64,000 nt of DNA, taken from a virus. This document shows positions 11,685-27,664 of the stretch, one piece after another; position 1 is the stretch's first letter, and each line of letters starts with the position of its first letter. The notes under the pieces were generated by a model, which saw nothing but the letters and a program-made list of their open reading frames with translations, had not been told where the DNA came from and made no database searches. The position numbers and the translations under genes were made by a program. Location of the stretch: positions 1 to 64,000 of the IMG/VR virus record IMGVR_UViG_3300037225_000466; one strand, 5' to 3'.

Positions 11685-11788
11685 ATCATCACTAATGATT
11701 CTACAAATTACCCAAAACTATTTCAAATCTAAGAAATATTTAGATAAAAAGCAAGGATTTTTTTGTCCGATTTAACGTACTTTATAAA

Positions 11789-25105: not shown

Positions 25106-25375
25106 TTATTCCTCCACCACTTTAAATCCTTCACGGATATTAATTAATTTGCCTTCCGCCCACTTTTTGACTGTTTCCCTGCACTTCTCAATAAAATAAT
25201 CGTCGTTACTTTTCTCTTCTAAGGCACGATGGGCATAGATAACATATTCACCTTCTCTTGCCTCATAAGGTTTACAGATACAATCTGGAGATAAGGTATG
25301 TAAATCCCTTTCCGAAGAAACTTCAAGATGTTTGAATTTCTCAGGATTTTCCTGCATTGCTTCTTCTTTTGTCAT
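25106..25375 (-). CDS. Hypothetical protein
   Basis: H..H..CIC.P..H motif, GGAGG RBS. Confidence 0.55.
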   Translation of the reverse strand: MTKEEAMQENPEKFKHLEVSSERDLHTLSPDCICKPYEAREGEYVIYAHRALEEKSNDDYFIEKCRETVKKWAEGKLINIREGFKVVEE

Positions 25376-25510
25376 TCCTCCACTATATAATAATCAGTTG
25401 CATCCAAAAGGTCTTCATTTAACGGCACTATTTTATCGAGGACGGCTCCGTCATACAATAAAGCCTTCATTCCTTTCCGCCACCAACTCGCCCGCAGTAA
25501 TTACCACCTA

Positions 25511-25550
25511 CAAAAATACCACCATGGACTTCTAATACACTACAAAAATA
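25511..25550 (-). promoter_or_regulatory. Tandem Bacteroidota-type promoters for left arm
   Basis: TATTTTTG on minus strand at 25550-25543 and 25518-25511. Confidence 0.55.
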
Positions 25551-25630
25551 CGAAACTCCCCGCCCAAAAGCAAGAGGTTTCAAACCTAATCCCTACCTAT
25601 TAAGAAAAGCATACTCATATAGGAACTATA

Positions 25631-26385
25631 TTATGTAAACTGACTTTAGGGTAATACTCATAAGTAACTTAAAAATAACAAAACGAGTTCTCTATATAGT
25701 ATGCTAATATACCCTGATTTCTGTAACCAAAGTAGATTTTTCTTAGCCCAAAGAATAAAAGTGTTTTCCCGAAGGTTTCTAAGACTACATTCCTCTAAGT
25801 AGTAATAATAATAAAATACTTGCTTAAGAGTCATAAAAGGCGAAAAAGAGCTATCTTAGCAACATATTTACATTACTAAGTAGTATCGCCAACTAAATCT
25901 GTCTCCAAAATCCGCTGTGGGGTGATTACTTCACTCTCTCATCCTTCAATGTGTCCCCATCCCCCCATCTGTTTTTGAGATTTCTAATCGCAAAAAATAT
26001 ATTTTAGGTTTCTCGATATTTAAATTAACATCCTCTAAGCAAGCAAGCAAACCAGGTATATATATTGATTAGTATATACTTTAAAAAAATAATAGTTAGG
26101 TATATATTTGTATGGTTATTAATGAGTAATCACCTACATGTATTACTTAAATAGAGTAAGTATAATATAGATACTAAGTAAGTGCATTGCAGATATGTGA
26201 TTATGTAAACTAACTTTGCGGGAATGTTGAGTAATCACCTACTTGTTTTAATTACTTTATAGTTATTGCCTGTTTTATGATATAGCTGTATTGTTATAGG
26301 TATATAGTGAAACATTAACGTTTGTTAATACTTAGTTATGTAAACTTACTGATTGTTTATATTGCTTTTTATTTAGTTTACATAA
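25631..26385. repeat. Four exact TTATGTAAACT 11-mers (XerD/RipX-arm-like)
   Basis: 25631, 26201, 26336 (+) and 26375-26385 (-). Confidence 0.75.
25921..26242. repeat. TGAGTAATCACCTAC direct repeats plus an inverted core copy
   Basis: 26123-26137, 26228-26242; GGTGATTACT at 25921-25930. Confidence 0.7.
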
Positions 26386-26530
26386 TATGTACTGTTGAAT
26401 ATTATACAGTTGGTTACTAATATTAGACAGTTGGTTTATATTGTACAGTGTCTTTATTTAGTACAGGTATTGCTATTAATTAAGTTATTGTATTATAAAG
26501 AAGTTATTTATTTTTTATTTATGGGAAATT

Positions 26531-26546
26531 TGGCATAACGTTTGCT
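26531..26546 (+). promoter_or_regulatory. Sigma54 (-24/-12) promoter for early region
   Basis: TGGCATAACGTTTGCT matches TGGCA-N6-TTGC(A/T) with exact GG/GC spacing, about 50 bp before first right-arm gene. Confidence 0.65.
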
Positions 26547-26598
26547 TATTACTATAGTAACTAATTATTTTGTTTAATATTTTTAAAAGGACTGAATT

Positions 26599-26817
26599 AT
26601 GAAAGAAGTTAAATTGTTAGAAAATTACGATATTTGTACTTTTGAAAATCAATCGCAATTTATACGTTATGATTGGGAAAATATGTTTATTAATGAGGTT
26701 ATCTTTATAGAAGACGACCAAAAGTCTGATTATAATCAAGTTGGATATTTTCATGTCATTGCCTTTGCTATTAATTCTATTACTGACAATGAAGTAATCC
26801 TAAGAATAGCAAATTAA
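26599..26817 (+). CDS. First early gene, acidic hypothetical protein
   Basis: 72 aa, AAAAGGA RBS. Confidence 0.6.
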   Translation: MKEVKLLENYDICTFENQSQFIRYDWENMFINEVIFIEDDQKSDYNQVGYFHVIAFAINSITDNEVILRIAN

Positions 26818-26823
26818 TTTTTC

Positions 26824-26894
26824 ACGTGGTTTAACTATTAGTAGTTAAGTAACTCATTATTACAAACCACGTCAAATAATAGCATTAAGCTATT
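26824..26894 (+). ncRNA. Three-way-junction RNA element plus GC-ATTAA-GC hairpin
   Basis: ACGTGGTTT/AAACCACGT stem enclosing two hairpins; AATAGC-ATTAA-GCTATT. Confidence 0.45.
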
Positions 26895-26924
26895 TTATGT
26901 ATAATTTATTTAAAAGGTCTCAAA

Positions 26925-27506
26925 ATGGAAAACTTAACAATTAACAAAAAGTCTGTTAAAGACGAAATTGCAGAATTAGAGGAATTACTATTATCTCCAT
27001 TAATGCAAAACGCAAAACAGGGCACATCATTATTTGTTCTCAAGGCAAGTTCAGAAAAAAGTCTCAATGCCTTAAAAGCTAAGGAACAAACGGAAATTTT
27101 AAACAATGGTTATTCTCAAAGTTTGTTTGAGTGTCTTTCTGTTTTCCATGAAGATTACCCAGAGCTTAAAATTACAGTAGAACAGATTAATAAAATGGTA
27201 GAGAAAGATAAAAATATTGCTCTTGGTGCAAAACAAATTTCTAATGGTACGAAAATTAATACACCTATTAATAGCATTGAGTTTCTTACAATTACTAATG
27301 AGAAACAAGTTTTTGCAGGCGGTTATAATGCTGTCTATAAGCAATTAGGCATTGATATTGAAAGTCTCAAGAGTGCAAACGGTAATTTTAAACCACAGGC
27401 AAGTGGCAATCCTAAGCTAAGGGAAGCACTTAGGGATTTAGGTTATACGGAAATGACCGTAAATTATGAAAACGGTACTAATATTGTTATTGACTTGACT
27501 AAGTAA
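26925..27506 (+). CDS. Early hypothetical protein
   Basis: 193 aa, AAAAGGTCTCAAAATG start context. Confidence 0.7.
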   Translation: MENLTINKKSVKDEIAELEELLLSPLMQNAKQGTSLFVLKASSEKSLNALKAKEQTEILNNGYSQSLFECLSVFHEDYPELKITVEQINKMVEKDKNIALGAKQISNGTKINTPINSIEFLTITNEKQVFAGGYNAVYKQLGIDIESLKSANGNFKPQASGNPKLREALRDLGYTEMTVNYENGTNIVIDLTK

Positions 27507-27513
27507 ATTTATT

Positions 27514-27550
27514 AGGTACGGTTTGCCCGTTGGTTTACCGTACCTTTTTT
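27514..27550 (+). terminator. Rho-independent terminator
   Basis: AGGTACGGT...ACCGTACCT followed by T run. Confidence 0.65.
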
Positions 27551-27664
27551 ATTCTCAAAATAACAAGTAATTAACTTTATTAGTCTTAACTAACAAATTT
27601 AGCCCTATACAAATGTATGGGTAAACAATTTTAAGAGCTTATAAGCTAAAAGGATTGGGTAAAA

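Follow-up and report, generated by a model that had tools for sequence, protein, structure and literature searches.

Pseudomonas phage YuA is transcribed from sigma-70-like as well as sigma-54-like promoters (Ceyssens et al. 2008, re-mapped in PMC10914365). In the same account, the sigma-54-like promoter is supported by a promoter trap and by capped 5' ends (PMC10914365). Sigma-54 promoters have also been validated in Flavobacterium, where they correspond to motif SM4 of F. psychrophilum (PMC9723704). A further F. psychrophilum promoter class, SM5, has TAnnTTGY at positions -12 to -5, the same place as TAnnTTTG; its sigma factor is not identified even in Flavobacterium (PMC9723704). One F. psychrophilum operon is served by SM4 and SM5 promoters that do not overlap (PMC9723704). 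Here, we describe a phage control region in which a sigma-54-like box and a candidate SM5-like promoter share sequence.

A putative divergent control region in a peat phage

The window, which is the whole 64-kb stretch of DNA analysed, is the first part of a 76,844-bp IMG/VR virus record, from an uncultured phage in peat metagenomes. The record has direct terminal repeats and is rated complete. Leftward genes end at 25375 and include glycosyl- and methyltransferases, a primase-helicase, terminase and portal. Rightward genes begin at 26599. This arm carries some 50 orphan genes, most of them small, as well as genes for a tRNA-His and an exonuclease. The two arms are separated by a gene-free control region, the features of which are listed in Table 1. 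A 58-aa open reading frame lies within it (25658-25834, minus strand). This has no ribosome site and an implausible sequence with a run of five tyrosines, and is probably not a gene. Hence, we took the control region to be a single non-coding stretch.

Table 1. Sequence features in and next to the control region (window coordinates)
Feature	Position	Strand	Description
Divergent control region	25376-26598		gene-free, 1.2 kb, 30% G+C
Leftward promoter	25543..25573	-	TTGC, 19 nt, TATTTTTG; serves opposite arm; other edge of control region
TTATGTAAACT	25631, 26201, 26336; 26385-26375	+; - (inverted)	four exact copies, confined to control region
P1	26103..26110	+	-7 box TATATTTG without -33 box; 105 nt upstream of P2
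TGAGTAATCACCTAC	26123-26137, 26228-26242	+	two copies, each just 3' of a -7 box
P2	26187..26218	+	TTGC, 20 nt, TAACTTTG; perfect canonical copy; predicted start ~26223
Palindrome ACTGT-TG-AATATT-AT-ACAGT	26391..26410	.	20 bp; left end of repeat array
Direct AATATTnnACAGT(TGGTT) units	26398..26449	+	three, spaced 21 and 18 nt
A+T-rich stretch	26453..26530	.	78 bp, 16.7% G+C, between array and promoter boxes
E. coli-type look-alike	26530..26558	+	TTGGCA, 17 nt, TATAGT; 10/12 match
Sigma-54-like -24/-12 box TGGCATAACGTTTGCT	26531..26546	+	predicted start ~26556-26558
P3	26542..26573	+	TTGC, 20 nt, TATTTTGT at 26566-73 (TAnnTTGY, SM5 class); predicted start ~26578
First rightward gene	26599..26817	+	72 aa, orphan; ribosome site AAAGGA at 26586-26591

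Three motif families are private to this region by a whole-genome check: the AATATTnnACAGT-type repeats, TTATGTAAACT and TGAGTAATCACCTAC. Such a density of private motifs looks like that expected of a phage control or origin region. One TTATGTAAACT copy sits within the P2 spacer. The copies at 26336 and 26375 make up an 11-bp inverted repeat with a 28-nt loop. As judged from these motifs, the TTATGTAAACT set looks like an operator for a second regulator. The gap between the plus-strand -7 boxes and TGAGTAATCACCTAC is 9-12 nt. Hence, TGAGTAATCACCTAC would fall at the transcript 5' end. A partial third copy is found on the minus strand (25931-25921). The motif includes ATCACCT, a sequence also present in the 16S rRNA 3' tail. 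An Rfam search of 25300-26900 returned no family matches.

The nearest cultured relatives of the primase-helicase are encoded by Tenacibaculum, Riemerella, Flavobacterium and Cellulophaga phages. Together with the TAnnTTTG promoters described below, this indicates that the host probably belongs to the Bacteroidota lineage. A GGAG, GAGG or AGGA ribosome site precedes 56 of the 102 phage genes, against a background of 9-15%. By the same measure, Tenacibaculum phage JQ has such sites at 6 of 73 genes. Such use points to a host outside classical Bacteroidia, in a branch of the Bacteroidota lineage that relies on Shine-Dalgarno sites. An rpoN-type sigma-54 and an activator are common in the probable host lineage, and were found in a Bacteroides control genome and in Bacteroidota genome bin G006, which is considered further below.

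Close relatives of the phage were sought in several collections. The portal protein had no relatives in species genomes, and the 605-aa glycosyltransferase and a 193-aa early protein had none in viral contigs. In a set of 5.8 billion proteins, genes 26599 and 26925 had no match but themselves. Neither the viral nor the metagenome collections contained an exact 32-mer from gene 1, a 34-nt piece of the tRNA-His had no exact match, and nothing was found when cultured phages were searched with DNA from 25500-27600. Phages related by their primase-helicase are 36-39% identical in that protein, with a fifth at 25%, and their gene order is different. Sigma-54 boxes in these relatives show no excess over a control pattern, and the sole exact box is inside the primase gene. 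Four peat DNA runs contain the identical sequence with no variants. Hence, they provide no population-level conservation signal. No RNA run is listed among those that contain the stretch.

Overlapping candidate promoter elements ahead of the early arm

The original prediction held that other operons of this phage use TAnnTTTG promoters, and the genome bears this out. The pattern TTG-N19-21-TAnnTTTG occurs 11 times, compared with 4.5 +/- 2.2 in shuffled sequence. Five of these are in intergenic DNA and directed toward the next gene: 11754(-), 18067(-), 25573(-), 26187(+) and 40537(+). The -33 box begins TTGC in four of the five. The phage promoter pattern is TTGC-N19/20-TAnnTTTG, which is of the Bacteroidota primary-sigma type. 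The copy at 26187, P2, lies 380 nt upstream of gene 1 and is directed into the early arm. No terminator is predicted between P2 and this gene. The RNA fold of the putative 379-nt P2 leader is unremarkable (z -1.1).

The -7 box of P3 is a variant that differs from the usual TAnnTTTG of the phage. Other parts of P3 recur elsewhere: TTGCTT is common to the promoters at 11754 and 25573, and TATTTT to those at 25573 and 18067. For the combined class, including TAnnTTGY, five copies were observed in oriented non-coding DNA where 0.32 were expected, and P3 is among the five. The SM5-like pattern alone is not enriched genome-wide (10 versus 6.8 expected), and P3 is its only intergenic instance. Beyond the window, TTGCTTATAATACGATTGTATTTATTTTGT at 66781-66752 (minus strand) closely resembles P3. 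It lies within a 68-aa gene, oriented as the genes are, and by its sequence may be an internal promoter of the P3 variant class.

The sigma-54-like box has precisely the -24/-12 spacing that had been claimed for it, GG-N10-GC, with GG at 26532-33 and GC at 26544-45. It is on the same strand as the first early gene and 53 nt ahead of it, with an implied leader of 42 nt. This is the sole full-score GG-N10-GC site in the 76,844-bp genome; all weaker sites are in coding DNA or wrongly oriented. Across the window, the box is not significant: TGGCA-N6-TTGCW is found once where 0.23 are expected, and at least one copy arose in 22 of 100 shuffles. We also restricted the shuffling to the 2.5 kb of non-coding DNA that precedes genes in the correct orientation. 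In this post hoc test, the strict box arose in 6 of 3000 shuffles (~0.2%). By this post hoc measure, pure chance is an unlikely explanation for the box at that location.

The TTGC at 26542-45 doubles as the sigma-54 "-12" element and the P3 -33 box. We used base-composition arithmetic to ask how often the two would coincide. Given the TTGC of P3, TGGCA is expected at the exact offset in ~4 of 10,000 promoters. Per phage, this is roughly 0.2%, in line with the shuffle result. Given a real sigma-54 box, a -7 box at the right spacing has a ~1% probability of arising by coincidence. Neither element is trivially a chance occurrence, and hence a dual promoter has to be considered. An imperfect dyad of 20 bp, TTATG..CATAA at 26519-26538, was weighed as an operator that would explain TGGCA. 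It was rejected because 8 of 10 pairs are expected by chance in such A+T-rich DNA.

As had been noted for the window, no sigma-54 activator is encoded, and this extends to the entire 76.8-kb genome, from which the Sigma54_activat domain is absent. The sigma-54 DNA-binding domain is likewise absent from the whole genome.

The repeat array and its search in species genomes

The palindrome ACTGT-N10-ACAGT and the tandem repeats of the original prediction are both present, and the repeats are confined to the control region. AATATTnnACAGT occurs four times, at 26398, 26419 and 26437 and, inverted, at 26403-26391. The tandem array has a period of 21 and 2.7 copies. There are no zero-mismatch copies elsewhere in the genome, where one-mismatch look-alikes are a few scattered singles. 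The centres of the array are ~156, 130 and 111 nt upstream, the usual range for enhancer sites. From this arrangement, the palindrome and direct repeats would be a genuine protein-binding array, be it enhancer, operator or iterons. Our interpretation is that of a phage operator or origin-type iterons, and not of a proven enhancer. The IHF-like 13-mer TATAAAGAAGTTA is indeed found at 26494-26506, inside the A+T-rich stretch. However, one-mismatch matches to WATCAANNNNTTR are at chance level (134 observed, 142 expected), and the site carries no weight as evidence.

We scanned one genome per species, 185,579 genomes in all, for similar arrays at sigma-54 promoters. For ACTGT-N10-ACAGT with a sigma-54 box 105-135 nt downstream, there were more than 120 matches, spread over all phyla. 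The chance expectation, estimated beforehand from the size of the collection, was ~135 matches, about as obtained. For AATATTnnACAGT with a box 75-105 nt downstream, there were 77 matches, again scattered, among which ~0.1 full palindromes are expected by chance. In one of these, from G006, the complete palindrome ACTGTATAATATTAAACAGT precedes TGGCATACTGCTTGCT by 96 nt. The site (L157:4196-4327, minus strand) is intergenic, just after a terminator and ahead of a gene for a Cache-HAMP methyl-accepting chemoreceptor. The G006 and phage palindromes agree at the same 16 symmetric positions. The bin has rpoN and flhF/flhG, Shine-Dalgarno sites at 17 of 38 genes and ~49% G+C. In the same bin (L214), a two-mismatch copy of the palindrome lies inside flhF, ahead of a sigma-54-like box before flhG.

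For a search of this size, the single G006 match is not compelling. Among 61 relatives of G006, the palindrome is found with at most one mismatch in five genomes, G006 included. In none of the other four is it beside a sigma-54 box. The complete module of palindrome plus box had no other exact match in 241 million metagenome records or viral contigs. The proposed comparison of the repeats with host sigma-54 operators hence gave scattered matches and one isolated case, which do not link the repeats to the regulon of a host activator.

The scan also returned several Bacillota genomes (L025, L037, L053, L077 and L101) with ACTGT-T(C/T)AAAAT(C/T)TG-ACAGT ~123-127 nt upstream of TGGCA(C/T)G(A/G)AA(A/C)TTGC(T/A). 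In all of them except L037, the next features are a strong ribosome site and a gene whose product begins MNFVYKFP or MSFVYKFP. The module has the look of a conserved site of a sigma-54 regulon that has no relation to the phage.

Competing readings and known systems

We favour, with moderate confidence, an ordinary divergent control region that would be run by primary-sigma promoters, the sigma-54-like box being incidental or accessory. This reading takes motifs, enrichment and positions as observed, and infers from them which sigma factor uses the motifs and what binds the array. The host would read Bacteroidota-style promoters (-33 TTG(C), -7 TAnnTTTG), and the rightward early arm would be started by P2 and the proximal variant P3. 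The sigma-54-like box is real as sequence, yet its "-12" TTGC would serve as the P3 -33 box. Most likely, it is not the driver of the arm and would at most be a conditional input. The enriched promoter class, a perfect P2 on the correct strand and the lone sigma-54 box argue for primary-sigma control, as do the lack of phage genes for sigma-54 or an activator, the chance-level IHF-like site, the Bacteroidota-phage relatives of the primase-helicase and the confinement of the three motif families to this region. Against it are the rarity of such a box by chance, the array at enhancer distance and the variant -7 box of P3. The distance of P2 from the gene, with a long leader of no notable fold, also counts against it. 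Since the sigma-54 box overlaps a promoter of the usual type and a textbook P2 is upstream, gating by a host activator is possible but unproven. Of the original prediction that sigma-54 drives the early arm, the box, its orientation and the position of the array fit, while P2 and P3 are a strong rival and the IHF element is noise. Nothing in the analysis points to a PspF- or RtcR-like activator, and the suggested link between sigma-54 gating and tRNA mimics found no support.

As a tentative alternative, the box would be a functional sigma-54 promoter, either by itself or in tandem with P3. A host enhancer-binding ATPase would occupy the ACTGTnnAATATTnnACAGT palindrome and half-site repeats, loop over the A+T-rich spacer and open the promoter. 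It would thereby add a condition-dependent early burst, which we regard as equally tentative. The near-consensus sequence, exact spacing, strand and genome-wide uniqueness of the box point this way, as do its low chance frequency in oriented non-coding DNA and the significant palindromic array 110-156 nt upstream. The palindrome in an rpoN-bearing Bacteroidota bin is consistent with it, and there is precedent in YuA for both promoter types (as described in PMC10914365) and in Flavobacterium for validated sigma-54 promoters (PMC9723704). However, the box is a single copy, its TTGC is already accounted for by P3 and the arm is already served by P2. Sigma-54 promoters also have a low base rate in phages. 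The module lacks another exact match in metagenome or viral collections, looser scans are at about chance level and the palindrome is never beside a sigma-54 box in the relatives of G006. The control region lacks TGTCA-N3-TGACA boxes, the IHF-like site is at noise level and mainly direct repeats fit iterons better than dimeric activator sites. A more specific version would stack an enhancer-dependent sigma-54 promoter on the primary-sigma promoter, with early genes boosted only when a host activator recognising ACTGTnnAATATTnnACAGT is on. We think this unlikely. It is similarly unlikely that the ACTGTnnAATATTnnACAGT of such an activator is the palindrome ahead of the sigma-54-type chemoreceptor promoter in G006, a flagellated, Shine-Dalgarno-using bin.

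The array and the adjoining 17% G+C stretch may instead be a replication origin, with iterons and an unwinding element activated by transcription from the promoters nearby, to which the sigma-54 resemblance is incidental. The lambda ori is an iteron-type origin, with four repeats beside an A+T-rich segment. In the phage, three direct ~20-bp units and an inverted unit are followed directly by the A+T-rich stretch. The array is at the switch point of gene orientation and GC skew, its repeats are found nowhere else in the genome and the phage encodes a primase-helicase. However, gene orientation is a confounder of the skew switch, none of the neighbouring genes was recognised as encoding an initiator and no DnaA boxes were found in the control region. 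We consider an origin possible but doubtful. Far less probable is that the E. coli-type pair is the promoter in use, recognised by a primary sigma of the conventional -35/-10 kind. The pair has an optimal spacer as well as its 10/12 match, and the phage makes heavy use of Shine-Dalgarno sites, unlike phages of classical Bacteroidia. Even so, the genome has ~48 such matches, random over both strands and not enriched ahead of genes; the -33/-7 class, by contrast, is enriched there. The look-alike does not belong to the promoter family of the phage and is probably irrelevant in a host of this type.

If the sigma-54 reading were true, this phage would join the very few with a demonstrated link between early expression and an enhancer-binding activator of the host, and the array would point to the operator of that activator. 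As it stands, the value of the locus is more modest: a mapped control region of an orphan peat phage, with three private motif families and three to four candidate promoters. The predicted starts, ~26223, ~26557 and ~26578, are distinct. A sigma-54 "-12" TTGC can fall on a Bacteroidota -33 TTGC, a general pitfall when promoters of such phages are called from motifs.

Iteron-type origins of phages and plasmids resemble the locus in its three to four ~20-bp repeats and the very A+T-rich non-coding stretch that follows, and differ in that no initiator gene was recognised in the phage. YuA, as far as the account in PMC10914365 goes, is similarly virulent, encodes neither sigma-54 nor an activator and has a sigma-54-like promoter beside primary-sigma promoters. 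The YuA promoter has experimental support, whereas the peat-phage box is a candidate from sequence, and the phages and their hosts are unrelated. With sigma-54 promoters (consensus TGGCACG-N4-TTGC), the locus shares the exact GG-N10-GC spacing, TGGCA and TTGC, the orientation and an upstream palindromic array. It differs in that the box overlaps a primary-sigma-type promoter and the array is mostly direct repeats. The host of the phage seems to use Shine-Dalgarno sites, unlike Flavobacteriia. P3 resembles Flavobacterium SM5 promoters in its TAnnTTGY, with the same -33 box and spacing as its sister phage promoters. Bacteroidota primary-sigma promoters (-33 TTTG, -7 TAnnTTTG; PMC9723704) are matched by P2 and by four other intergenic promoters of the phage.
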